Assembly (NCBI GenBank): GCA_949294555.1
Contig: CASFHP010000001.1
Coordinates: forward strand, 19,070 to 83,069
Direction of reading: 5' to 3'
Length of the DNA stretch: 64,000 bases
DNA from: an uncultured Eubacteriales bacterium
GTDB lineage: Bacteria; Bacillota; Clostridia; TANB77; CAG-508
A program made the position numbers and the translations under genes. Positions 2,072 through 40,827 of this stretch are shown piece after piece. Each line of letters starts with the position of its first letter. Position 1 is the first letter of the stretch. The notes under the pieces were generated by a model. The model ran no database searches. It worked only from the letters and a program-made list of their open reading frames with translations, and was not told where the DNA came from.

Positions 2072-3940
2072 GTGCGCCACGAATGTACAACAAGTAAGAT
2101 AAAATTACTTGAAAGATACAGTAATTGTATAGATGATGGTAGTAGGTCTACCGAAAACGTCATACAGGTGGAGTTTTCAAACCACTCTAAGGTGCTGTAT
2201 TCAAAAGATATGGTATTGAGCGTTAGAGAAAAGGCAACAAAAGTTGTCAGGTGGGTATTAAGGAGATGAATGAGCAAGTGAACCACTTACGAAAGCATCG
2301 AAAAGTATAGATTTCATCAAAACCAGGGGGTTGTCGTTAATCTGGGATAAGTCTAGTGGAAACCTGTTTACTGACTAGATGGTGAACGGTGCAGAGGTGG
2401 CATGAACTTAATACAGGCATTTATACGAAACGTGGGAACCTACGGGCTAATGATAAGGGAGAATATCAAGTGGAAGAACCATAAGATAAGAGTACCAATG
2501 TAGTCATAGGGGCAGATTAAATCGTAGTAGTGAAGAAGCTTCTGTAATGGAAGTGGAGCGAAGGGTTTAAAATTACTAGTTTAAGAAATAAGTCAACTTT
2601 GAAAGGAGGAGGAGCTTATGGAAGAAACAAAGCCGTTTAAAATTTCAAAACAAATAGTCAAAATATCATTCGAAAGAGTAAGAGCAAACAAAGGAACATA
2701 TGGAATTGATGAACAGTCAATAACAGATTTTGAAATAAATTTGAAAGATAATTTATATAAAATATGGAACAGAATGTCATCAGGAACATATTTTCCAAAA
2801 CCAGTAAAAGCAGTAGCAATACCTAAGAAGAATGGTGGAACTAGAATACTAGGAATACCAACGGTTGAAGATAGGGTAGCGCAGATGGTAGCTAAAATAT
2901 ACTTTGAGCCAAATGTGGAGAAAATATTCTATGAAGATTCTTGTGGCTATAGACCAAATAAGTCAGCAATACAGGCAGTTGGAGTATTAAGAGAAAGATG
3001 CTGGCGAAAAGATTGGGTGGTTGATTTTGATATCAAAGGATTGTTTGATAATATAAGGCACGATTACTTAATTGAAATGGTTAAAAGACATACAAATGAG
3101 CAATGGATAATTCTATACATAGAAAGATGGCTAAAAACACCATTTAAAATGCAAGATGGAACAATAGTTGAAAGACCAGCAGGAACACCGCAAGGAGGAG
3201 TAATAAGTCCAGTATTGGCAAATTTATTTATGCACTATGTATTTGATGACTTTATGAGTAAAAAGTTTCCTAATATACCTTGGGTAAGATATGCAGATGA
3301 CGGAGTTTTAAATTGTGTGTCAATTAAGCAAGCAAAATATATAATTAAAGTTTTAGATAAAAGATTTAAACTTTTCGGCTTAGAATTAAATTTAGACAAA
3401 ACTAAAATTGTGTACTGCAAGGATGAAGATAGACAGGGAGATTATGAAAATACGAGTTTTGACTTTCTAGGATATACATTTAAAACAAGAGGAGCAAAGA
3501 ACAAATATGGAAGATTATTTAGAAATTTCTTACCAGCAATGAGTGATAAAGCACAAAAAGAGATAATAAAAGAGATAAGAAGTTGGAAACTACAATTAAA
3601 GTCAGATAAAACAATAAATGACATAGCGAATATGTTTAATAGCAAAATACAAGGGTGGATAAATTATTACACACATTATTATAAATCTGGAATAACCAAA
3701 GTATTAAGATATATAAATAGATGTTTAATAAAATGGGCAAGAAGAAAGTATAAGAAGCTAAAATCAAACAAAAGAGCAGTAAACTGGTTAATGACAATAG
3801 CACAAAGAGAACCAAAATTATTTGCACATTGGAAATTTGGAATTATGCCAACGGTATGGTAATTGGGAGCTGTATGATGGGAGACTATCACGTACAGTTC
3901 TGAGAGAGGCTTGAGGGGAGGTTCCTCTTGCCTACTCACT
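2072..3940 (+). mobile_element. Bacterial group II intron (~1.87 kb) in sense orientation inside the transposase gene
   Basis: 5' GTGCG at 2072. Domain V-like GAGCTGTATGATGGGAGACTATCACGTACAGTTC at 3867-3900, followed by a short domain VI. RT/maturase ORF sits in domain IV. Joining 2071 to 3941 restores ..YWMT-VLNELKNRGVQDIL.., the conserved IS256 Tnp sequence. The exact 3' boundary is uncertain by 1-2 nt. Confidence 0.85.
2618..3862 (+). CDS. group II intron reverse transcriptase/maturase (414 aa, no obvious HNH endonuclease domain)
   Basis: RT motifs: IPKKNGGTRILGIPTVEDRVAQ, GTPQGGVISPVLANLFMHYVFD, YADDGVL. Maturase X-like C-terminus (GWINYYTHYY). RBS AGGAGGAGG lies upstream. Confidence 0.9.
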   Translation: MEETKPFKISKQIVKISFERVRANKGTYGIDEQSITDFEINLKDNLYKIWNRMSSGTYFPKPVKAVAIPKKNGGTRILGIPTVEDRVAQMVAKIYFEPNVEKIFYEDSCGYRPNKSAIQAVGVLRERCWRKDWVVDFDIKGLFDNIRHDYLIEMVKRHTNEQWIILYIERWLKTPFKMQDGTIVERPAGTPQGGVISPVLANLFMHYVFDDFMSKKFPNIPWVRYADDGVLNCVSIKQAKYIIKVLDKRFKLFGLELNLDKTKIVYCKDEDRQGDYENTSFDFLGYTFKTRGAKNKYGRLFRNFLPAMSDKAQKEIIKEIRSWKLQLKSDKTINDIANMFNSKIQGWINYYTHYYKSGITKVLRYINRCLIKWARRKYKKLKSNKRAVNWLMTIAQREPKLFAHWKFGIMPTVW

Positions 3941-28310: not shown

Positions 28311-28387
28311 GCTCCCTTAGCTCAGTTGGTCAGAGCAACCGGCTCATAACCGGTGGGTCCAAGGTTCGAATCCTTGAGGGAGCACCA
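28311..28387 (+). tRNA. tRNA with CAT anticodon (Met, or Ile2 if lysidine-modified), CCA encoded
   Basis: Acceptor GCTCCCT/AGGGAGC, D-arm AGCTCAGTTGGTCAGAGC, anticodon loop CT-CAT-AA, T-arm GGTTCGAATCC. Confidence 0.9.
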
Positions 28388-28404
28388 TTTTAAAAAATAT
28401 ATAT

Positions 28405-28490
28405 GGGTAGGTGGCCGAGTGGCTAAAGGCGGCAGACTGTAAATCTGTTCTCATTTGAGTACGAAGGTTCGAATCCTTCCCTGCCCACCA
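28405..28490 (+). tRNA. tRNA-Tyr (GTA), long variable arm, CCA encoded
   Basis: Acceptor GGGTAGG/CCTGCCC, anticodon loop CT-GTA-AA, long variable arm, T-arm GGTTCGAATCC. Confidence 0.9.
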
Positions 28491-28574
28491 AGACGAGTTT
28501 TTGTCGAACTCTATGTAATACTTGATATAACTTGATTTCAAGATTATGAGAATTTGACAACACAAAAACTTTAA

Positions 28575-28605
28575 ACCGTTTCAAAAAAGAAGCGGTCTTT
28601 TTTTG
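28575..28605 (+). terminator. rho-independent terminator after the tRNAs
   Basis: ACCGTTTC-AAAAAA-GAAGCGGT followed by CTTTTTTT. Confidence 0.7.
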
Positions 28606-29099
28606 ACCAAAAATATTGAAAAAAGGAGGTTTTTGTGGTATTATGTTACAAATAACAAAAAAAGAAATCAATATGAGTAAGTAATTACTCTCTAAAATCG
28701 AATGGGCGTGCCGTTTAAAATTTAAAGGAAAAGAACAGCCACAAATAATAAATGGTTGTTTAAGAATTATTGACCATAGCAATTTAGCGTATGTAGAGCC
28801 CCATAGAGTAATTATTAAAGATAGCTTGTACCTATTCTTTAATGAACACGATTATTTCTATGTAAATGATTTAAGTACAAAGTATCCGTTATCCAAATTA
28901 CAAGAACATATCAGCGGAAATACATAACATAGAACGGCAAAGCATTTTAGAGTTTTTAAAAAATTATACTATATTGGTTTATTTGTGTTATTAAAAAAGA
29001 AAATTAAAGAGATAGTAATAATAAATATAAAAACTCTAAAAGTGCTAATAGCTAAAACTATGCTATGTGGCACTTTTTTAGTTGCATTTCTATTCATAA

Positions 29100-30942
<1,843 letters not shown>

Positions 30943-30970
30943 AAAAATTTAATAAATGGAGGAATTGAAA

Positions 30971-31363
30971 ATGGAAAATAAAGAATTAAAAGAAAACAAA
31001 ATCGAAAATAAATATGGAATTGAATACACAAAAGTTGGAGATTATTTTATGCCTAATTTAGTTTTAGAGAAAGAAGAAAAAATTATATTAAATAAATATG
31101 GAAGAATGAGATTAAAATTTTTAAAAGAAAACAGGAAAGCAGAGTACACAATAATGTTTATGAATGGAACTTTGAATAGACATTTAAAAGAGATTCAAGA
31201 AATAGCAGACAATAGAATTAATCTTATAGTTGAACAATTAAAAAAGAAAAATAATTTAACAGAAGAAATGAAAAATACAGAACAATTATATTGGTTTAGT
31301 ATGATGAATAATTTTAAGAATATAGCAGAAGAAATTATATTAAAAGAACTAATATATGCATAA
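30971..31363 (+). CDS. tnpV: TnpV-like transposon protein
   Basis: ..YTKVGDYFMPNL.LEKEE...LNKYGRMRLKFLKENRKAEYTIMFMNGTLNRHLKEIQEIADNR..QLYWFSMMNNFKNIAEEIILKELIY follows the TnpV family pattern of Tn4451-like elements. Confidence 0.65.
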   Translation: MENKELKENKIENKYGIEYTKVGDYFMPNLVLEKEEKIILNKYGRMRLKFLKENRKAEYTIMFMNGTLNRHLKEIQEIADNRINLIVEQLKKKNNLTEEMKNTEQLYWFSMMNNFKNIAEEIILKELIYA

Positions 31364-31606
31364 GAAATTACTGGTAGGAGCAAATAGGCAAATGTATTGC
31401 CAAATTTAATGTCTATAAGTGTAGCGAGCATAGGTTTTGTATTGCCACAAAACCGACAGCTTATGCTGAAAGGGGAAAATCTTCCCCTATAACCCCTACC
31501 TTATGAAACAAAAAAATAGAAATTAAAATTGAATAAGAAATTAAAAATTTTTTAAAAGATTTTATAAAAAATAGAATGGGAATTTATAAAAAGGAAGTGA
31601 AAAATT

Positions 31607-31930
31607 ATGAGAAATAGAACAATAGGAATTAATGTTAGAGTGAGTGAAAATGAGAAGAAAAAATTACAAAGAAATGCTAAAAAAAGTAACTTGAATTTGT
31701 CAGCTTATTTAAGAAAATCAGGATTGCAAAAAGAAATTTATTCAATACCAGATGAAGAACTTCGTAAAATTTACAATGGAATTGTTGAATTAAAAAATGA
31801 GTTTTCTTATATGAGTGATGAAGAAATAAAAGACAAGATAACAAAAATGCAAAGTGATTTTTTAGACATTTACAATTACAAAAAAGATGGAGATGATGTG
31901 AGTGGCAACAACGAAAATATGGGCAATTAA
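31607..31930 (+). CDS. mobC: MobC-like relaxosome accessory protein (ribbon-helix-helix)
   Basis: RTIGINVRVSENEKKKLQRNAKKSNLNLSAYLRKSGL is a MobC signature. Overlaps the relaxase start. Confidence 0.7.
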   Translation: MRNRTIGINVRVSENEKKKLQRNAKKSNLNLSAYLRKSGLQKEIYSIPDEELRKIYNGIVELKNEFSYMSDEEIKDKITKMQSDFLDIYNYKKDGDDVSGNNENMGN

Positions 31931-33275
31931 AGATAGTATCTCTCGAGTAATAAGCTATGCAAAAAATCCAGAAAAGACAACATTTTCTGATTTAAAACAA
32001 GTATTAAAATATGCAGAAAATGATGAGAAAACCATAGATAAAAATGAGAAGACTATGTATGTAACAGGAGTAAATTGTAAAGCCAAAACAGCTTATGAAG
32101 AAATGACAGTAATACAAAATAGATTTGATAAAATTACAGGAAATGTTGCATATCACGCATACCAAAGTTTTAAAACAGGAGAAGTTTCGCCAGAATTAGC
32201 ACACAAAATCGGAGTAGAATTAGCAGAAAAGATGTGGAGTGAATATCAAGTAGTAGTTGCAACACACTTTAATACTGGCACATATCATAATCATTTTGTG
32301 GTAAATTCAGTAAATATGTTTACAGGAAAGAAGTTTAATTGTAACAAAGAAGCATATTATCATTTCAGAGAGTTATCAGATGAACTATGTAGAGAATATG
32401 GACTAACAATTATTGAAAAGCCAAAAGGAAAAACACCAAGAAATATATACTTTGCAGAAAAACGAGGAGAGCCAACGAAATATAATCTAATGAGACAAGC
32501 TATGGATGAAGCAATGGGAATGTGTGTAACTTATTCACAATTTAAAAAGATAATGTATAAAAAAGGCTATATTATAAATGATGATAATAATCGAAAGTAT
32601 CCTACAATTCGTTCAATGAATGATAAAAAAGCAGTAAGAATGTATCAGTTAGGAGAAAAGTATTTGCCGAAAAATATTGCAGAAAGAGTTTTTCAAAATC
32701 CATATTATGTGCAAGATGAATATTATAAATTGATAAAACCAAAAAAGAATTATACAAAATATAAAGTTTATAAATATAAAGGAAATTTAAAAGATATTAG
32801 TAAAATGAGTGGAATTGATGTACTTTTTATATTACTATTTCATTTATTAGGCTTAATACCAAAACGAGAAAATTACAAACCACTATCTCCAGAAATGAAA
32901 CAAGAAGTCAGAAAAATGCAACGATATACTAATGAAATTAGACTTATTGTGACAGGAAAATTAAAAACATTTGATGATGTAAAAAACTATATTTCACAAA
33001 CTGAAAAAGATATAGAAAGTGTTATCAATTTAAGACAAAAATATAGAAATAAGCTAAGAAATTGTACAGATGATATTCTAATAAAAGAATACAAAACAAA
33101 GCGAGATGAATGTACTACTATGCTAGATAAATATAGAAAAAATCTAAAAATAGCAAATTATATTTTAGAAGATACACCAAAAGTTAAAGAAGTTATAAAA
33201 ATTGAAACACAAATGAAGAGAACTCAAGAAGATATTACCAAAACAGAGAAAAAGGATAGGAATTTAAACAGATAA
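31902..33275 (+). CDS. relaxase/mobilization nuclease (MobA/VirD2-type)
   Basis: GTG start. ..AIKDSISRVISYAKNPEKT..HAYQSFKTGEVSPELAHKIGVELAEKMW..VVVATHFNTGTYHNHFVVNSV is a histidine-triad-type relaxase motif. Confidence 0.8.
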   Translation: MATTKIWAIKDSISRVISYAKNPEKTTFSDLKQVLKYAENDEKTIDKNEKTMYVTGVNCKAKTAYEEMTVIQNRFDKITGNVAYHAYQSFKTGEVSPELAHKIGVELAEKMWSEYQVVVATHFNTGTYHNHFVVNSVNMFTGKKFNCNKEAYYHFRELSDELCREYGLTIIEKPKGKTPRNIYFAEKRGEPTKYNLMRQAMDEAMGMCVTYSQFKKIMYKKGYIINDDNNRKYPTIRSMNDKKAVRMYQLGEKYLPKNIAERVFQNPYYVQDEYYKLIKPKKNYTKYKVYKYKGNLKDISKMSGIDVLFILLFHLLGLIPKRENYKPLSPEMKQEVRKMQRYTNEIRLIVTGKLKTFDDVKNYISQTEKDIESVINLRQKYRNKLRNCTDDILIKEYKTKRDECTTMLDKYRKNLKIANYILEDTPKVKEVIKIETQMKRTQEDITKTEKKDRNLNR

Positions 33276-33428
33276 TAATACAAAGAGGTTGTTATATATA
33301 AAAGTGGCAATCTCTTTTATATTAATTTCTGGAAATAATTGTTTTTATACGGATTTTATGATATAAATAAGGAAAATACGAAATTTGCGACGTTTTTATA
33401 GCAAGTTTTAAAACGGAGGAAAATAAGA

Positions 33429-33998
33429 ATGGATAAAAAAACTATTATGATTGATATGGATGAAGTTATTGTAGTAGGGAATTTCTCAAATTATTTAATA
33501 GAATTTTTAGGAAAAGTAGATTTTGACAAACTACATAGTCAATATAGACAAGATTTAATAAAAGGAAAAGAGGAAGAATTTAAGACAATATATAAATATA
33601 AAAATTTATATAAAAATAATAATGGAGACTATATTGAGCCATTACCTAATTGTATAGAAGTAATCAAAGAATTAAATGAAAAATATGATGTTTATATTGC
33701 TACAACTTATATTTGGAAAGAAGATGTAATTGATGCAGCTACTAATTTAAAAAATAAATTTGAGTATTTACATTATTGGCTTCCTTTTATTGATACAAAT
33801 AATTTTATATTTATGACAGACAAAACAAAAATAAAATATGACATAGGAATTGATGATAGAGTATCAAATTTAGAAAATTGTGATAAAAAGTTATTATTTA
33901 CAGAATTTAGAAATAAAAAATTAACTGATAACGAACTTAAAGCTAAAGGAATAGTAAGAGTAAACAATTGGTTAGATGTAAAAGAAGAATTGATATAA
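33429..33998 (+). CDS. HAD-superfamily 5'(3')-deoxyribonucleotidase-like protein (NT5C-like)
   Basis: DxD motif in IMIDMDEVIV, later GIDDR. Size (189 aa) and layout resemble YorS/NT5C-type nucleotidases. Confidence 0.55.
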   Translation: MDKKTIMIDMDEVIVVGNFSNYLIEFLGKVDFDKLHSQYRQDLIKGKEEEFKTIYKYKNLYKNNNGDYIEPLPNCIEVIKELNEKYDVYIATTYIWKEDVIDAATNLKNKFEYLHYWLPFIDTNNFIFMTDKTKIKYDIGIDDRVSNLENCDKKLLFTEFRNKKLTDNELKAKGIVRVNNWLDVKEELI

Positions 33999-34047
33999 TT
34001 AAAGATATAAGGGATTCAGAATATATATAGGATTGGAGAGAAATATT

Positions 34048-34539
34048 ATGGACAAGCCAATAAGAAAGGCAGTACGATGCTATTTAATAAAAGACAATGA
34101 AGTAGTAGTAACAAAATATAAAAAAGGTAATAAAAAAGAAGGATATTACGATATACCTGGAGGCAAAATTGAGGAAGGAGAAAGCCCAAAACAAACAGCA
34201 ATAAGAGAAATGAAAGAAGAAACAGGAATAGAAATACAAAATTTAAAATATAAAGGAATTATGATAATAGAATATCCAAATAGAATGTTTATATTTGACA
34301 CATTTATCTCTAAGGAATATGAAGGAGAACCACAGGAGTTTGAGGAAAATACGTCAGAGTGGATAGATATAGATGAATTATTGAAAAAAGAAAAAATATT
34401 GTCGAATATAATATTATTAGATAAATTTCTTATAAAAGGATTAATAGATGATAATCGCGATTTTAACTTACATATAAAAGTAGATGAACAAGAGAATATT
34501 TTAGAAATAGACTATAAATTAGAAAAAAATAATAATTAA
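34048..34539 (+). CDS. NUDIX hydrolase (MutT-like)
   Basis: Nudix box GGKIEEGESPKQTAIREMKEETGIE. Start at ATG 34048 after GGAGAG. Confidence 0.8.
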   Translation: MDKPIRKAVRCYLIKDNEVVVTKYKKGNKKEGYYDIPGGKIEEGESPKQTAIREMKEETGIEIQNLKYKGIMIIEYPNRMFIFDTFISKEYEGEPQEFEENTSEWIDIDELLKKEKILSNIILLDKFLIKGLIDDNRDFNLHIKVDEQENILEIDYKLEKNNN

Positions 34540-34568
34540 AAATAAAATAGAATGGAGGTCATAAAAAA

Positions 34569-35405
34569 ATGAAAATAGCAGTTATTTCAGATATACATGG
34601 GAATTTAGAAGCATTAAAAGCAACTCTAAACGATATAGAAAAAAGAAAAGTAGATAAAATCATATGTTTAGGAGATATAATAGCAAAAGGAGTACATCCT
34701 AAAGAATGTATATCATTAATAAGAACAAACTGCGAAATAGTATTACAAGGGAACTGTGATGTCCATTTTTCAACAGAGCATAAGAATATTGAGGAAATGA
34801 ATGAGCAAGAGAAAAAAAGAATAAAATGGAATCAATCATTAATAGATAAAGAGGATAGAGAATATTTATTAAATTTACCGTTTTGCTATGAACTATATAT
34901 GAGTGGTAGTTTAATAAGATTATTTCATGCAACACCTACTGTTAATAATAAAGCAATATTAAATGTTGATAGTATTGAAACAAAATATCAAATGTTTTTA
35001 CCAAGTGAAAAAACACTATCTCAAGATATTGCAGATGTTGTAATATATGGTCATATTCATCATCCATATATGGACAGAATATACAATAAAACTATAATAA
35101 ATGTAGGAAGTGTAGGAAATTCTTTCGATGTTATAAGGAATAAAAATAAAGATAGCGACGTGTTAGAAACTACGAAAAGTAATTATCTAATAATTGAAGG
35201 AGAATACGGAAGTAGAGAATATTCGTCCGATATTTCTTTTCAGTTTATAAAAGTGCCTTATGATATTGACATGGAATTGGAAGATGAAAATTTGAATATT
35301 GAAAAAGAAAACTATAGATTTGAGTTAAAACAAGGTATGTATAGAGATATGACTAAAATTAACGAAAATTTTAAAAAATTAGGAATAGATGTGGATAAAA
35401 TTTAA
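34569..35405 (+). CDS. metallophosphoesterase (calcineurin-like; ApaH/PrpE-like)
   Basis: Motifs ISDIHGN, LGDIIAKG, GNCD, GHIHHP, and an approximately 80-aa C-terminal extension. Confidence 0.75.
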   Translation: MKIAVISDIHGNLEALKATLNDIEKRKVDKIICLGDIIAKGVHPKECISLIRTNCEIVLQGNCDVHFSTEHKNIEEMNEQEKKRIKWNQSLIDKEDREYLLNLPFCYELYMSGSLIRLFHATPTVNNKAILNVDSIETKYQMFLPSEKTLSQDIADVVIYGHIHHPYMDRIYNKTIINVGSVGNSFDVIRNKNKDSDVLETTKSNYLIIEGEYGSREYSSDISFQFIKVPYDIDMELEDENLNIEKENYRFELKQGMYRDMTKINENFKKLGIDVDKI

Positions 35406-35419
35406 GGAGGAAAATTGCA

Positions 35420-35851
35420 ATGGAAATTATTGTAGGAGGAATCATTGAAAAAGACAATAAAATATTAATGGTAAAAGAGGCAAAAAAGAAATGTTATGGA
35501 AAATGGAATGTGCCTGCAGGACATTTAGAAGATGGAGAAACAATATTCGAAGGAGCTATTAGAGAAATATTTGAAGAAACAGGATGTAAAGTTAGATTGA
35601 AAAATGTACTTCCAATAATAAATAAAGAATTGGAAAATGTTAAATTTTTATTAATAACTTTTACAACAGAATTATTAGAAGAGAATATATCTTTTAACAA
35701 AGAAGAAATTTTAGATGTAAAATGGATTTTAAAAGAAGAGTTAAAAAATATGACAAGTGAAAACTTAAGAGATGAGAAATTAATAAAAAGTACATTAAAA
35801 ATGCTTGAAGAAAATAAATTATATCCTTTAGATGTAATAGAAGTATTATAA
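35420..35851 (+). CDS. NUDIX hydrolase (second copy, divergent)
   Basis: Nudix box AGHLEDGETIFEGAIREIFEETGCK. Confidence 0.8.
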   Translation: MEIIVGGIIEKDNKILMVKEAKKKCYGKWNVPAGHLEDGETIFEGAIREIFEETGCKVRLKNVLPIINKELENVKFLLITFTTELLEENISFNKEEILDVKWILKEELKNMTSENLRDEKLIKSTLKMLEENKLYPLDVIEVL

Positions 35852-36016
35852 TATATCAATTTATGGAAATAACTAAAACGAGATGATTGATTTTAGAAAA
35901 GCAGAGGAAAGCTTCGAAGAATATTAAAAAGATTATGATTTAGAAAATAGCAGTTAAAAAATATACATAGAAAAACTAAAATGGTATGAAAATTGAAAGT
36001 GAGGCAAGTAAAAAAT

Positions 36017-37057
36017 ATGTCAAATGAAATTAAGTTATTAGATGATGATTTTATAAAAATTGTGAAAGCTATTGAACAAGATATATTAGAGACTAGATTT
36101 AACATCATAGCTAAAGCTAATAAAGAGGTCATAGATTTTTATTTGAGATTGGGAAAAATTATTAGTGATAATGCTAAATATGGTAATAATTTTATAAACA
36201 AATTATCAATAGCATTAAAATTAGATTTTCCTGGAGAAACAGGATTTTCTCCTCGTAATTTAGCAAGAATGAGAAAAGTTTATGAATCATATAAAGATTT
36301 AGATGAATTTCCAAAGGAATTAGAAATGATTTCGTGGTCTCAAAATTGTATATTAGTTGATAAAACTAAAGAGTTAGATAAAAGACTCTGGTATGCTAAA
36401 CAAGTTTTAGAAAATGGTTGGTCTAAAACTGTGTTAAGTCATCAAATTGATTTAGAATTATATGAAAGACAAGCTATTCCTGACAAGTTAACAAACTTTG
36501 ATAATAAACTACCTATTGCACAAAGTGAATTTGCTAGAGATATGATAAAAGACCCTTATATTTTTGAATTGGCTAATATAAGTAAAAAGGCAACAGAAAG
36601 AGACATTGAAAATGCTATGATAGAAAGAATAAAAAATGTATTACTTGAATTAGGAAAAGGTTTTAGCTTTGTTGGAAATCAATATAAAGTTTCAACAAAC
36701 AATAATGACTATTATATAGATTTATTATTTTATCATTTAGATTTAAGATGTTTTATAGTTGTCGAATTGAAAAATACTGAATTTAAGCCAGAGTTTATTG
36801 GACAACTAGGATTTTATGTAACAGCCGTTGACGAAACATTGAAGAAAGAAACTGATAATGACACAATAGGATTATTGCTTTGTGAAGATAAAGACAAATT
36901 AACTGTAGAATGGTCATTAAAAAATGTCAATGCTCCAATAGGAGTAGCTTCATATAAAGTAAAGAATGCAATTCCTAAAGAAATAATGGAAAAATTACCT
37001 ACTGAAGAAGAATTGAATTTGTATATAAATAGGTTACCAAATGAAGAAAATGAATAA
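36017..37057 (+). CDS. DUF1016/YhcG-family PD-(D/E)XK nuclease-like protein
   Basis: ..GFSPRNLARMRKVYESY..WSQNCILVDKTKELDKRLWYAKQVLENGWSKTVLSHQI..DPYIFE..GKGFSFVGNQYKV..DYYIDLLFYHLDLRCFIVVELK is the YhcG/DUF1016 pattern. Confidence 0.7.
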   Translation: MSNEIKLLDDDFIKIVKAIEQDILETRFNIIAKANKEVIDFYLRLGKIISDNAKYGNNFINKLSIALKLDFPGETGFSPRNLARMRKVYESYKDLDEFPKELEMISWSQNCILVDKTKELDKRLWYAKQVLENGWSKTVLSHQIDLELYERQAIPDKLTNFDNKLPIAQSEFARDMIKDPYIFELANISKKATERDIENAMIERIKNVLLELGKGFSFVGNQYKVSTNNNDYYIDLLFYHLDLRCFIVVELKNTEFKPEFIGQLGFYVTAVDETLKKETDNDTIGLLLCEDKDKLTVEWSLKNVNAPIGVASYKVKNAIPKEIMEKLPTEEELNLYINRLPNEENE

Positions 37058-37146
37058 GAAAATGATTGGTATTTTGAAATTTGCCACTGGTGGCAAATTT
37101 CATATATAAATATTATTACATATGGTTGTAGTATGAAGGAGTAATT

Positions 37147-38502
37147 ATGACCGAGATAGAAATGGATAAAATAGATATCACTAGAGAAAAAGCAAAAGAA
37201 TTTGTTGGTGCTGGAAATACAATTAAAGCAGAGGAAATATTAGAACAATTATGGACAAATTCTAGCAAGAAAGATGTATATTTATTATATGAATATGGAA
37301 ATGTACTTCGATCTAATAACAAGCAAATAGTATTTATAAATATTTGTAGAGAGTGTTATAAGAACAAAAGTATTATTAATAATACATACATTAAAAATTT
37401 ATTATGTTGGTGTATTTATGAAGTTTATATTAAAGATTTTGTAAAAGATGAAGATAGTGATTTTAATGAATTTATAAAAGAAGCAAATTTTATAAAAGAC
37501 AATATAATGCAATTACCTAAAGAACAAGAACATTATAATCCATATGTATTAACAATCTTTAAAGTGATTAGAGTTTATATGAAAAGTGCCAAAATTAACT
37601 ATAAGGAGATATTAAAGTGGCTTAATTGTCTAAATCCGAACGAATTACCAGAAGAAGTGTTTAAATTTCAAGATGTTAAAGGAAAAGAAAGAGAAAAAGC
37701 TTCAAAAAAAGAATTCTTTTATCAATACAAAACAAAAGCATTAGAAAAATTACATAGATATGAGGAATGTATAAATATATGCGAAGAAGCACTAAAAAGC
37801 ATTGAAAGATTTCATTATAGAAATGATGTATGGATTAAAGCAAGATTGTATTTTAGTAAATGCATGGAAGCTAATGATAATAACTTGGAATGTGAAATCA
37901 GAGAATATAAAAATCTAGCTTTAGAAGAAAATCATTGGTTTATGTATCATAAAATATCATCGATGTATTGGAGATATGGAAAAATGGAAGAAGCCTTGCT
38001 ATATGCAAACAAAGCATTAAGTTGTAATTTTAAATATGAAATGATGAATAGACTTTTGCAAGATATAGCACTTTTGTGGGAATATAAAGGAAATTTAGTT
38101 AATGCCAAAATCTATTATGAAGCAAGTGCTTATTATAGAAATAGAGAAGGATGGAAATTAACAGAAGAATTGGAATTTGCAATAAAAAATTATAATTTGA
38201 ATGTGAAAAATAAACCTAATGTCAAGTTACTACAAGAAATAGCTTCGAAGCATATTCAAAGTATTGAAGGAACTAAAAAAATTCACATAGGTAAAATATG
38301 TAATTTAGATAGAAATTTTGGCTTTATAAATTCACATGAATTTAAAGAAAATATATATTTTAAATTAAATGATATAAGGAATGATAAATTTTTAAGATTA
38401 AATAAAATAGTCGAATTTGAAATTATTGAAGCATCTAAAGGAAAACGAGCTATAAATATAGTAATTAGGGGGAATAAAAATGGCAGAAATATGTATCAAT
38501 GA
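37147..38502 (+). CDS. TPR-like helical-repeat protein with a C-terminal cold-shock (CSD/OB)-like domain (451 aa)
   Basis: Helical repeats (YEECINICEEALKS.., YGKMEEALLYANKALS.., KGNLVNAKIYYEASAYY). C-terminus IGKICNLDRNFGFINSHEFKENIYFKLNDI..VEFEIIEASKGKRAINI carries FGFI (RNP1-like) and IYFKL (RNP2-like) motifs. The stop overlaps the next gene by 23 nt. Confidence 0.55.
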   Translation: MTEIEMDKIDITREKAKEFVGAGNTIKAEEILEQLWTNSSKKDVYLLYEYGNVLRSNNKQIVFINICRECYKNKSIINNTYIKNLLCWCIYEVYIKDFVKDEDSDFNEFIKEANFIKDNIMQLPKEQEHYNPYVLTIFKVIRVYMKSAKINYKEILKWLNCLNPNELPEEVFKFQDVKGKEREKASKKEFFYQYKTKALEKLHRYEECINICEEALKSIERFHYRNDVWIKARLYFSKCMEANDNNLECEIREYKNLALEENHWFMYHKISSMYWRYGKMEEALLYANKALSCNFKYEMMNRLLQDIALLWEYKGNLVNAKIYYEASAYYRNREGWKLTEELEFAIKNYNLNVKNKPNVKLLQEIASKHIQSIEGTKKIHIGKICNLDRNFGFINSHEFKENIYFKLNDIRNDKFLRLNKIVEFEIIEASKGKRAINIVIRGNKNGRNMYQ

Positions 38503-39514
38503 AAAAGATATAAAATCACTTATCGAATCATATAAAAAGGAAAATAATACTTTTAACTTATACTCTTATTCTGAATTAAAGGGAAACAAAAGGGTGTGTA
38601 AATTTTTTATAAATAACCAAGAGTGTAGGATAGATATATGGATTAAAAAAAGTAGTGTAAAAGTGATTCCTACAAAAAATCCAAATTATGCAAATAAGTT
38701 AATAGAATTTATTACCAAAAACACTCAGAATGCGAATATCAGTGGAACACAAAGTGTTTTTCAATTTAGTAGGAGTATGCTAGATTATTTACTAAATAAG
38801 ATTGATGATGAATATTATGGTTTAATAACATATACAAGAAATGAAAATATAATTAGATTTAAAGGATATAATGGAGATATAGTAACATTTACCTATTATG
38901 AAAATAAAAACAAAGCAATGATTCAAGCTAAACCGTTAGTAACTTTTGGAATAATTGTTAATATCTTAACAGAAATAACGGATATATCTATTGATGAAAT
39001 AATAGATATAAATAAAGCACTAGCAAATGTTAATATGCCAACTGATAAGATTAGAGAGAAAATGAAAAATATATTGAAAAATTCATATACCTATTTAGAT
39101 GAAGCTATATTGAAATCAATCTCAGGATCAATGACTTTGTTGGAGCAAAATGATTATAGTGAAGATTATACTGGGCATATTACGGGAATTTTTAAAGCTC
39201 TAGAGGGATATTTAAAGAAAGTTTTAAGTAAAGAATTTAATTATAAAATTAAAAAGAAGCAAAGTTTTTCTATGTTCTATAAGGATAAAGGAAATAAAAG
39301 TGAAATAGATTTGGATAATAATTTGACACAAGATGAAAAAGATGCTTTAAACAGACTGTATTCAATTTATAGTGATAAAAGAAATGTTTATTTACATAGT
39401 ACAGTTGATCCATCTCAAATGAGAATAATTGAAAAAATAAGTGAAGCAAGAAATTTAGCAGATGAAATATTAAACAAAATTGAAAGTTCATATGATGTTT
39501 TTTTTAATAAATGA
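38480..39514 (+). CDS. RnlA/LsoA-like HEPN toxin (RNase LS-like), 344 aa
   Basis: Size and layout fit RnlA. It has two TBP-like N-terminal repeats (CRIDIWIKKSSVKVIP; IVTFTYYENKNKAMIQAKP). The C-terminal helical domain carries an Rx4H HEPN motif, R-NVYL-H, at codons 39380-39397. A small downstream gene occupies the rnlB position. Confidence 0.55.
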   Translation: MAEICINEKDIKSLIESYKKENNTFNLYSYSELKGNKRVCKFFINNQECRIDIWIKKSSVKVIPTKNPNYANKLIEFITKNTQNANISGTQSVFQFSRSMLDYLLNKIDDEYYGLITYTRNENIIRFKGYNGDIVTFTYYENKNKAMIQAKPLVTFGIIVNILTEITDISIDEIIDINKALANVNMPTDKIREKMKNILKNSYTYLDEAILKSISGSMTLLEQNDYSEDYTGHITGIFKALEGYLKKVLSKEFNYKIKKKQSFSMFYKDKGNKSEIDLDNNLTQDEKDALNRLYSIYSDKRNVYLHSTVDPSQMRIIEKISEARNLADEILNKIESSYDVFFNK

Positions 39515-39524
39515 GGAGATTAAA

Positions 39525-39872
39525 ATGGGAGAATATGAGATATTTGAATTTGAAGAAGATATTAATGAAAAAGTGGTATTTTTAAATACCACTGAAGATT
39601 TATATTTTTTACAAGATGAAATAATGGAAAAGGTATCTAGTAAAAATAAAACTGTATTGGTAGATTTATTTTTAAGAAATGGATTCACCTTTAATAGATA
39701 TGTACTGTTAAAAATGGATTCAAATAATAAATTTAAAAGCTTTATTATAAATCCAAGAGAAGTTTCAGAAAAAATAAAAAAGAAAGTTGAAAATTATTTA
39801 AAAGAGCATAATGAATTATTATATTCAAGTTCCCTTACTCAAAATGAAATTGAATTTATTATTAATAGATAA
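39525..39872 (+). CDS. RnlB-like antitoxin candidate (115 aa)
   Basis: RBS GAGGAG. Lies immediately downstream of the RnlA-like gene. VLVDLFLRNGFTFNRYV resembles, from memory, the RnlB-family core. Confidence 0.45.
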   Translation: MGEYEIFEFEEDINEKVVFLNTTEDLYFLQDEIMEKVSSKNKTVLVDLFLRNGFTFNRYVLLKMDSNNKFKSFIINPREVSEKIKKKVENYLKEHNELLYSSSLTQNEIEFIINR

Positions 39873-40502
39873 AAATATTTATTAAAATTATAAAGTATAT
39901 AGTTGCAATTTATAAAAAGTTATGTTAAATTAAAAACATAGTAATAGACAAAAAAATGCCAATGTGGGTATACATGTCCTTGAAACTATTGCTATAACTA
40001 ATTTTGAAACGGATAATAAGGTGCTTCTATGCGTGACGTTTTTCGAATACGTCCTTCGCTAAGGCACCATAAAATACAAGTTTAACTTGTATTTTATTTT
40101 ACAAGCAATAACGAACAAATGTTTAAAAGAAGAGATTATGCATTTTAATACTAATAAAGAAAAAGGAAATTCTGGATTAGGAATGGCAATAGCATATTTA
40201 AAATTTTATTATGTTGAAATTTTACAAAGATATGAATTATTAATAATCATAAAAATTTGATAATCTTTTATAAATATAATTGATAATATATGAAAGAGAG
40301 AATAAAATTAGTGATAGATGAAAAATTAACATATATCGATAAAAATACATTAGAAAATTATTACCTTACTTTAAAATTTTACTTTGTTCGCTTGTTTTTA
40401 ATTGTAAAATATTGTATAGTAGATAACATAGAAAATGAGATAGTAGATATGTGTTGCCACTTTACTAGATAGCATTTGCTATCAGAAAGTGAGGTGGTGT
40501 TT

Positions 40503-40616
40503 ATGAGTTTTATATTATTTTTAATAATTACTGTAATGGTATCATTAACCATAAACGTAGCCTTATTAGCGATTATATACATACAATATGTAAATACAAT
40601 TATAGATAAGGAATAA
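40503..40616 (+). CDS. 37-aa hydrophobic peptide, type I toxin-like
   Basis: Not in the ORF track. RBS GAGGTGG lies 6 nt upstream of ATG 40503. Encodes MSFILFLIITVMVSLTINVALLAIIYIQYVNTIIDKE (one TM helix plus a polar tail). Followed by a terminator hairpin at 40621-40661. Confidence 0.45.
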   Translation: MSFILFLIITVMVSLTINVALLAIIYIQYVNTIIDKE

Positions 40617-40712
40617 AAATAACGGCACATTCTACTTTTTGACCGAAGGGAATGTGTCGTTATTACTTGTATAAGTGGTAACCACAAACATCTGTGGTTC
40701 TCATTTTCTATC
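40617..40712 (-). ncRNA. candidate convergent antisense sRNA with its own promoter and terminator
   Basis: Minus-strand TTGACA (40739-40744) - 17 nt - TATAAT (40716-40721). Transcript would contain hairpin AACCACA/TGTGGTT and terminator hairpin AACGACACATT..AATGTGCCGTT plus ATTTTTATT. A homologous unit lies at 54155-54276. Confidence 0.4.
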
Positions 40713-40827
40713 TTTATTATACATACTTTATTATAAAATGTCAAATAATTTTATTTCAAAATATTGTTAAATCACACCTCCTATGATAAAACTGATTATA
40801 TAAAATATAATAAGGAGAATAATTTAT

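Follow-up and report, generated by a model that had tools for sequence, protein, structure and literature searches.

A probable TOTE-class RnlA/RnlB-type cassette with a TPR-cold-shock-domain partner, on a putative mobilizable element of an uncultured chicken-gut Clostridia

RnlA-RnlB and LsoA-LsoB of enterobacteria are the textbook anti-phage toxin-antitoxin (TA) pair, and their activation is usually ascribed to decay of the labile antitoxin alone. Here we describe a relative of these pairs in which a third gene stands ahead of the toxin gene. The cassette lies on the + strand of a 64,000-nt stretch of DNA (hereafter the window) from contig CASFHP010000001.1 of an uncultured chicken-gut member of the Clostridia. 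It consists of gene A, encoding a protein with tetratricopeptide repeats (TPR) and a cold-shock domain (CSD), gene B, encoding an RnlA-like toxin, and gene C, encoding an RnlB-like antitoxin. With a probability of about 60%, we read the cassette as an RnlA/RnlB-type TA (abortive-infection) module of the TOTE class, carried as cargo of a mobilizable element, in which the A protein would act as a nucleic-acid sensor or adaptor that docks on the TATA-binding-protein (TBP)-like domains of the toxin.

In E. coli RnlA, the NTD (TBP1) and the NRD (TBP2) are TBP-like domains, and the functional (catalytic) residues are R255, E258, R318 and H323 (PMC8266594). The free toxin rests as a non-canonical dimer, and its activity needs the canonical HEPN dimer as well as TBP1, the latter for substrate binding; RnlB binds the HEPN dimer only, blocking the substrate groove, and because the antitoxin is labile, a shut-off of host expression frees the toxin (PMC8266594). 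The TOTE class (TPR, OB, TBP, Effector), for which Bell et al. 2025 (preprint, PMC12458937) cite Aravind, Iyer & Burroughs 2022, is outlined in that preprint as having in common a TPR-CSD fusion gene and TBP proteins, with RNase H domains often included. Models related to the class exist in two databases. In Pfam, PF22721 is the [quoted passage not shown] (TBP-TOTE); in PADLOC, PDLC01170 is the [quoted passage not shown], and the candidate system PDC-M16 pairs a superfamily 1 (SF1) helicase with TBP-TOTE (PDC-M16A) with a TPR-CSD-like protein (PDC-M16B).

The three open reading frames (ORFs) were confirmed at their predicted coordinates, in the order A-B-C and within a compact 2.7 kb. Gene A runs from 37147 to 38502 (451 aa), gene B from 38480 to 39514 (344 aa) and gene C from 39525 to 39872 (115 aa from its ATG), all on the + strand. 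Gene B starts 23 nt ahead of the gene A stop codon, and the ATG of gene C lies 10 nt past the gene B stop; an alternative upstream TTG would extend C to 130 aa. A GGAG-type ribosome-binding site precedes all three starts. On five other contigs that carry the same B protein, independent gene callers put genes A and B at 451 and 344 aa in all five cases, and gene C at 115 aa in four and at 126 aa, from an upstream start, in one. The cassette sequence occurs in chicken-gut metagenomes, and the sequencing runs that contain it are all DNA metagenomes.

Gene B was compared with RnlA and LsoA at the level of profiles, sequence and structure, as the initial annotation had proposed. Pfam assigns to it the HEPN domain model RnlA-toxin_DBD (PF19034, E 1.2e-13) and, weakly, the model of the repeated N-terminal domain, RnlA_toxin (PF15935, E 9e-4). 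Its approximate domains are a first TBP-like domain at residues 1-85 (38480-38734), a second at residues 88-165 (38741-38974) and the HEPN domain at residues 170-344 (38987-39511). A phmmer search of PDB sequences found LsoA (5hy3, E 5e-4), in an alignment that places the RNVYLH of gene B (R301...H306, 39380-39397) on the RHGLFH of LsoA, both of the form R-x4-H, and FKALEG (39194-39205), which holds K239 and E242, the partners of the Rx4H motif, on LRAIEG (R..E). Across 27 homologues of B, R301, H306 and E242 never vary and K239 reaches at least 90% conservation; the homologues carry the same pair of Pfam domains and the RefSeq name "RnlA family toxin". The AlphaFold2 (AF2) model of B (pLDDT 89.5) shows a repeated pattern of beta-sheet and helix, and Foldseek aligned it to full-length E. 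coli RnlA (4i8o/6y2q/6y2r) over about 360 columns, with TM 0.61-0.63 and E around 1e-13. RnlA and LsoA chains were the only significant matches. We conclude from the sequence and the predicted model that B is an RnlA-fold protein of two TBP-like domains and a HEPN domain, with its catalytic Rx4H and E residues intact.

Gene C follows B in every complete cassette that we found, and its protein scores 37.5 bits against the Pfam model RnlB_antitoxin (PF15933), above the cutoff of 27 (E 3e-9). Its top PDB match is E. coli RnlB (6y2p_C), which is weak (E 0.014). By profile and position, C is an RnlB homologue. The descriptions of B as RnlA-like, with two TBP-like N-terminal repeats and an Rx4H motif, and of C as RnlB-like have both held.

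The cassette resembles the E. coli RnlA-RnlB and LsoA-LsoB systems (RNase LS, anti-T4 type II TA) in its TBP1-TBP2-HEPN toxin with Rx4-6H and E residues, in the placement of the toxin gene ahead of a small RnlB-family gene, and in its association with mobile elements. It differs from them in sequence, with only about 14-18% identity, and in the equivalent of RnlA R255, which is K239 in gene B. It also differs in gene content: an obligatory, coupled TPR-CSD gene stands before the toxin gene here, whereas two genes make up the enterobacterial systems (3.3-kb plasmids).

The additional gene encodes an alpha-solenoid followed by an OB-fold. In its AF2 model (pLDDT 89), gene A forms about 20 helices over residues 13-374 (37183-38268) and then a 5-strand barrel over residues 380-440 (38284-38466). 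Pfam TPR models all score under their cutoffs, and Foldseek matched the solenoid to the TPR domains of OGT, the BBSome, CTPR and IFIT1 with probability 1.0 at TM values of only 0.2-0.36, as for a generic TPR fold. We also considered IFIT-like binding of RNA 5' ends and rejected it, because IFIT1 is just one of many generic TPR matches, with TM around 0.3. The barrel matches the Pfam CSD (PF00313) at residues 383-439 (E 2.5e-7; 30.9 bits against a cutoff of 27) and contains an RNP1-like NFGFI and an RNP2-like IYFKL; G392, F393, I394 and F405 are invariant, which includes the GFI of the RNP1-like motif. PDLC01170 matches gene A at E 8e-39. Together, the Pfam CSD, the AF2 model, the Foldseek matches and the ORF layout bear out the initial annotation of A as a TPR-CSD protein whose gene shares 23 nt with gene B, the two being translationally coupled. 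When searched against PDB sequences, the gene A profile retrieved CspA/B/C/E, Unr and CSDE1, that is, cold-shock domains only, so the solenoid has no relative with a solved structure there.

The most conserved part of A lies in the solenoid. Residues 166-195 (ELPEEVFKFQDVKGKEREKASKKEFFYQYK, 37642-37731) include a beta-hairpin insert, with strands at 172-175 and 181-184 in the AF2 model, and have the top block conservation (0.62) in the protein. Their signature, D..GK.RE.AS.KE.YY, contains the invariant residues E183, A185, S186, K188, E189 and Y192, recurs in the consensus of the distant family, and is followed by a second motif, FHYRN.IW.K.R. Some TPR-CSD proteins of the RnlA-linked clade (locus L020, 8001-9608; representatives P0187 and P0190) are longer, at 531-537 aa, through an in-frame duplication of N-terminal repeats. 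We considered whether gene A of L020 is frameshifted and rejected this, since its two tblastn pieces, with overlapping query stretches, share one reading frame and fit the 531-537-aa representatives.

Co-conservation of A with B had been set beforehand as a test that could refute the proposed three-gene unit, and the unit withstood it. A search from A returned 28 genome loci, and the order A-B-C was present in all 25 of those with downstream DNA, down to 34% identity in A. In the reverse direction, a search from B found A in 22 of 22 loci that had B at an identity of at least 37% and upstream DNA. Across 28 distinct cassettes, the spacing between A and B ranges from -29 to +4 nt and that between B and C from 1 to 40 nt. 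The pairwise distance matrices of A, B and C are correlated at r = 0.90-0.94 (r = 0.90 for A and C), and none of 2000 Mantel permutations gave a value as high. The flanks differ from locus to locus, such that A, B and C are the only genes in common, and are enriched in restriction-modification systems, integrases, resolvases, Schlafen-like helicases, AbiEii-like ATPases and Fic. A-B-C is inherited as a single, tightly packed operon. It is not a self-contained bicistronic TA operon, as gene A overlaps the toxin gene and none of the relatives within the clade lacks it. With these data, the notion that gene A is a chance neighbour of an ordinary rnlAB pair, to which two-gene RnlA-RnlB loci elsewhere might have lent some weight, has a probability close to nil: 28 distinct cassettes with unrelated flanks share the same order, overlap or near-abutment, and congruent divergence.

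The TPR-CSD family extends well beyond these cassettes. An exhaustive HMMER scan with the gene A profile, in which each cluster at 50% identity is represented once, gave 281 representatives with E <= 1e-30; at E <= 1e-10 there were 941. Most have 425-450 aa and align end to end. The exhaustive scan alone recovered these distant relatives; a word-indexed protein search with the same profile added none. A degenerate DNA pattern for FHYxNDIW yielded about 45 true family genes from many phyla, plus chance matches. At 19 of these approximately 45 distant loci, the TPR-CSD gene adjoins a same-strand SF1 (RecD/PIF1-like) helicase gene, usually directly upstream of it. The helicases have 700-1000 aa, some with an N-terminal NERD nuclease, and end in two copies of PF22721; they correspond to PADLOC PDC-M16A. 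None of the 19 helicase-TBP loci has an RnlB gene, which was found only together with a HEPN RNase effector. Other TPR-CSD loci have RnlA and RnlB, or a fusion of RNase H1 to RnlA together with RnlB. In a rough neighbour-joining tree of the TPR-CSD proteins, the effector types are interleaved, and two loci with the RNase H1-RnlA fusion and an upstream TPR-CSD gene (L069 and L090) form the nearest outgroup of the window clade.

A four-gene arrangement is found as well. On a Bacillus plasmid (NZ_CP152438, 646241-650000; locus L052), RefSeq annotates RNase HIII, a TPR protein, an RnlA family toxin and an RnlB family antitoxin, and a Neobacillus locus (L049, 3519-7412) has the same array of RNase HII/HIII, TPR-CSD, RnlA and RnlB. 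The TPR gene is missing from Carnobacterium and Lactococcus plasmids that encode RNase H, RnlA and RnlB, and RnlA and RnlB occur without a TPR-CSD gene in Paraclostridium, in Stenomitos, on a Paracoccus plasmid and on E. coli plasmids. The initial annotation had taken rnlAB and lsoAB to be two-gene systems; this stands for the enterobacterial examples, but elsewhere RnlA often comes with RNase H partners, TPR-CSD partners or both.

A few family loci have unusual content. One (L138, 3455-7998) has on one strand a helicase-TBP fragment, a TPR-CSD gene, a 145-aa ORF, RnlA and RnlB, or two effector types for one TPR-CSD gene. In another (L117, 1-5835), an extra 805-aa protein with a CSD of its own is encoded between the helicase-TBP and TPR-CSD genes. 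In two others (L159, 1-3494, and L079, 5505-8000), the TPR-CSD gene is followed by a gene for a HAD-phosphatase/phosphoribosyltransferase-like fusion protein, which may represent another effector set for this family of presumed sensors; in L159, a DprA-like (DNA_processg_A) protein comes next, and no TBP-domain gene was recognised there.

We next compared the cassette with TOTE and its relatives. Gene A fuses TPR to an OB-fold, its TPR-OB protein is homologous to those encoded beside TBP-TOTE proteins, as both are matched by the A profiles and by PDLC01170, and in B a HEPN RNase is fused to TBP-like domains as the effector. As TOTE is outlined by Bell et al., the cassette holds all four letters of the name: TPR and OB in A, a TBP-like module and a HEPN effector in B, with the TBP assigned by fold. 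It shares with the outlined class a TPR-CSD(OB) protein beside a protein with an effector and with domains that are TBP-like in fold, and has sister loci with RNase H domains. It differs in its effector, an RnlA-type HEPN RNase guarded by RnlB, in TBP domains that fit the RnlA Pfam models and not PF22721, and in the absence of a helicase, NERD or RNase H gene from the window. TALON, as described in the same preprint (Bell et al. 2025, PMC12458937), likewise has TPR-CSD and TBP genes, but is built on a YprA helicase and a NERD nuclease, both absent here. PDC-M16 has a TPR-CSD partner of the same family, PDLC01170 matching both; unlike PDC-M16, the window has no PDC-M16A helicase, with no helicase gene near the cassette, and gene A matches no PDC-M16B model at E <= 1. 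For B and C, PADLOC v2 gave no match to any model. RNase H-RnlA fusions and operons of RNase H, RnlA and RnlB (PMC3710099) have the same core of HEPN and RnlB, but in the window toxin TBP1 replaces the RNase H module, and no gene for an RNase H lies close by.

What the TPR-CSD protein contributes can be considered from its partners. These are enzymatically unrelated: a helicase with or without a nuclease, an RNase H-HEPN protein, or a HEPN protein, and the TBP-like module is the sole element that they have in common. Because the effectors share only this module and are interleaved on the tree, the TBP module is the most likely candidate for the conserved partner of A; going by this sequence comparison, the HEPN domain or RnlB would be an unlikely one. 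We propose that A uses its TPR surface or the conserved beta-hairpin to dock on the TBP-like domains of B. Its CSD would bind single-stranded RNA or DNA, such as phage transcripts, replication intermediates, or the strand displaced beside an RNA:DNA hybrid, the last of which comes to mind because sister systems encode RNase H. In doing so, A might sense infection, deliver substrate, or both, and favour the active state of the RNase, with RnlB serving as a possible safety catch on the HEPN dimer. A sensor or adaptor role of A is plausible on this comparative basis.

Several observations weigh against this proposal. The N-terminal domains of B do not match Pfam TBP-TOTE (PF22721) and fit the RnlA-specific models, and an hhalign comparison of B with the TBP-TOTE repeats of the helicases was marginal (E 0.0076, probability 5%); for these two reasons the TBP link of B rests on fold, namely the match to TBP1 and TBP2 of RnlA (PMC8266594). 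The RNP2-like IYFKL of the gene A CSD is only partly conserved and partly canonical. For some of the TPR-CSD genes, the 8-kb blocks that we examined contained no TBP effector that could be recognised. A point in favour of the proposal comes from a natural variant (locus L173, 7646-8979; ENA ERZ16268140 scaffold_7822), in which a 22-bp deletion (nt 761-782 of A) in an otherwise identical gene A causes a frameshift that splits the protein into fragments of 253 and 172 aa, and the RnlA-like and RnlB-like genes are intact. A frameshifted A next to intact B and C fits a role of A as activator or sensor that is not needed to restrain the toxin, but the variant comes from a single metagenome assembly and could be an assembly error.

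Alternatively, gene A could regulate expression of the operon, with its CSD bound to its own mRNA or to promoter-proximal single-stranded DNA (ssDNA), as in CspE-like antitermination or translational control, and its TPR receiving a signal as in the RNPP regulators of Firmicutes; third genes of tripartite TA systems would offer a parallel. Gene A opens the operon and is coupled to the toxin gene, the closest similarity of its CSD is to the Csp antiterminators CspE and CspA, and, as RnlB lacks a DNA-binding domain, a separate regulator would be of use. A perfect 12-bp inverted repeat with a 2-nt spacer (GAAATTTGCCAC tg GTGGCAAATTTC, 37076-37101) also lies just upstream, about 20 nt past the stop of the preceding YhcG gene and 45 nt ahead of gene A. 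Judged from its sequence, it could be a terminator-like hairpin, with no clear T tract, or an operator that overlaps a possible -35 element. A promoter scan was uninformative in this DNA of 25% GC (48 sites against 44 expected), and an Rfam scan found no RNA family in or adjoining the cassette. We nevertheless regard a regulatory role as unlikely. TPR-CSD genes also accompany helicase-TBP effectors, which are not TA pairs, and are usually the last gene there; a conserved solenoid of 375 residues with an invariant surface motif far exceeds the needs of an autoregulator; and no RNPP regulator is among the top 50 structural matches of A.

We consider it quite unlikely that A is a chaperone or co-antitoxin of the kind found in toxin-antitoxin-chaperone (TAC) systems, with a TPR that would hold RnlB or the RnlA-RnlB complex and stabilise the antitoxin until A is titrated away by a phage trigger. 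Like the cassette, TAC systems consist of three genes, and the proposal for their third protein is that it links the TA pair to a trigger. TPR domains are well known as scaffolds between proteins, coupling of the genes would enforce their stoichiometry, and the three proteins co-evolve equally tightly, A with C included. However, the 19 helicase-TBP loci have TPR-CSD without an RnlB-like gene, so RnlB is not the conserved partner of the family, and a variant in which A is broken while B and C are intact could hardly persist if A had to silence the toxin. Neither Pfam nor Foldseek found similarity of A to the SecB-type chaperones of TAC; A is a TPR solenoid with a CSD, from a family tied to TBP-domain effectors and not to antitoxins.

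It is very unlikely that the cassette is a novel extension of two-gene rnlAB. The initial annotation had supposed that a TPR-CSD-extended system was undescribed, and some of the literature would agree: within the library that we searched, no publication links RnlA/RnlB with a TPR-CSD partner or pairs RnlA with TPR or cold-shock terms, the CoCoNuT paper has TPR and CSD in other contexts only, and the 2013 HEPN census (PMC3710099) gives for RNase LS only RNase H/TBP fusions and the RnlB operon. The supposition fails because TOTE, in the outline of Bell et al. (PMC12458937), is defined by exactly these components; PF22721, PDLC01170 and PDC-M16 already model parts of it, and RefSeq annotates trios of TPR protein, RnlA and RnlB. 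The cassette probably belongs to a class that, as far as that outline goes, earlier computational work had defined and for which Pfam and PADLOC model some of the parts; it is not a class of its own. The same literature search found no experimental work on any TOTE component.

Returning to the TOTE-class module with A as a TBP-docking sensor or adaptor, there is room for a modest advance, in that RnlAB may represent a reduced form within a family of systems that have a sensor. In many Bacillota and in other phyla, RnlA-RnlB comes with an obligatory TPR-CSD gene and sometimes with an RNase H gene, and the use of TPR-CSD proteins by both RnlA and helicase effectors, which share only a TBP-like domain, points to a dedicated layer that senses nucleic acid or serves as an adaptor. 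A wider idea, which we put forward tentatively and with more doubt than belief, is that RnlA-type toxins in general are driven by sensors and not released by antitoxin decay only. The TPR-CSD protein would then be the missing sensor of phage single-stranded nucleic acid or R-loop-like intermediates and would switch RnlA, via its TBP domains, from the resting to the canonical HEPN dimer; the enterobacterial two-gene RnlAB and LsoAB would be reduced TOTE systems with this step handed over to host factors, RNase HI for example. The dependence of E. coli RnlA on host RNase HI would fit an RNA:DNA hybrid as ligand. With 2.7 kb and no helicase or RNase H gene, the three-gene version would be a convenient minimal system for the function of TPR-OB proteins in TOTE, and "TOTE-type RnlAB with TPR-CSD partner" is a better annotation than a hypothetical protein beside a TA pair.

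The surroundings of the cassette suggest how it is carried. Upstream, in order, are two tRNA genes (28311-28384 and 28405-28487), a small serine recombinase or resolvase (29103-29621), TnpV (30956-31363), a NikA-like gene with a MobA/VirD2 relaxase (31902-33275), a nucleotide-hydrolase cluster of a 5'-nucleotidase (NT5C), a NUDIX protein, a metallophosphoesterase and a second NUDIX protein (33429-35851), and a YhcG/DUF1016 PD-(D/E)xK nuclease (35993-37057; PADLOC candidate PDC-S02, E 1.6e-121). The layout from 28311 to 37057 suggests a mobilizable integrative element with cargo that starts at NT5C, and the nucleotide hydrolases could make up a separate module for defence or counter-defence. 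No relative of gene A turned up in a scan of viral contigs, which gave no sign of a phage-borne cassette; among PLSDB plasmids, there was no near-identity match to the 4.2-kb region, and tblastn of gene A against plasmids returned nothing.

On the other side of the cassette, the approximately 955 nt 3' of the RnlB-like gene (39873-40827) contain no + strand ORF longer than 60 aa and no Rfam match; they could represent decayed genes or the edge of the element. Within them, a sequence on the minus strand (40744-40716) matches a sigma-70-like promoter at 12 of 12 positions. Far upstream in the window lies a group II intron (2138-3940), recognised by Rfam group-II-D1D4-2 (110 bits, 2138-2252) and by the domain V/VI model Intron_gpII (62 bits, 3865-3940), with a 414-aa ORF (2618-3862) inside it that presumably specifies the intron-encoded protein.

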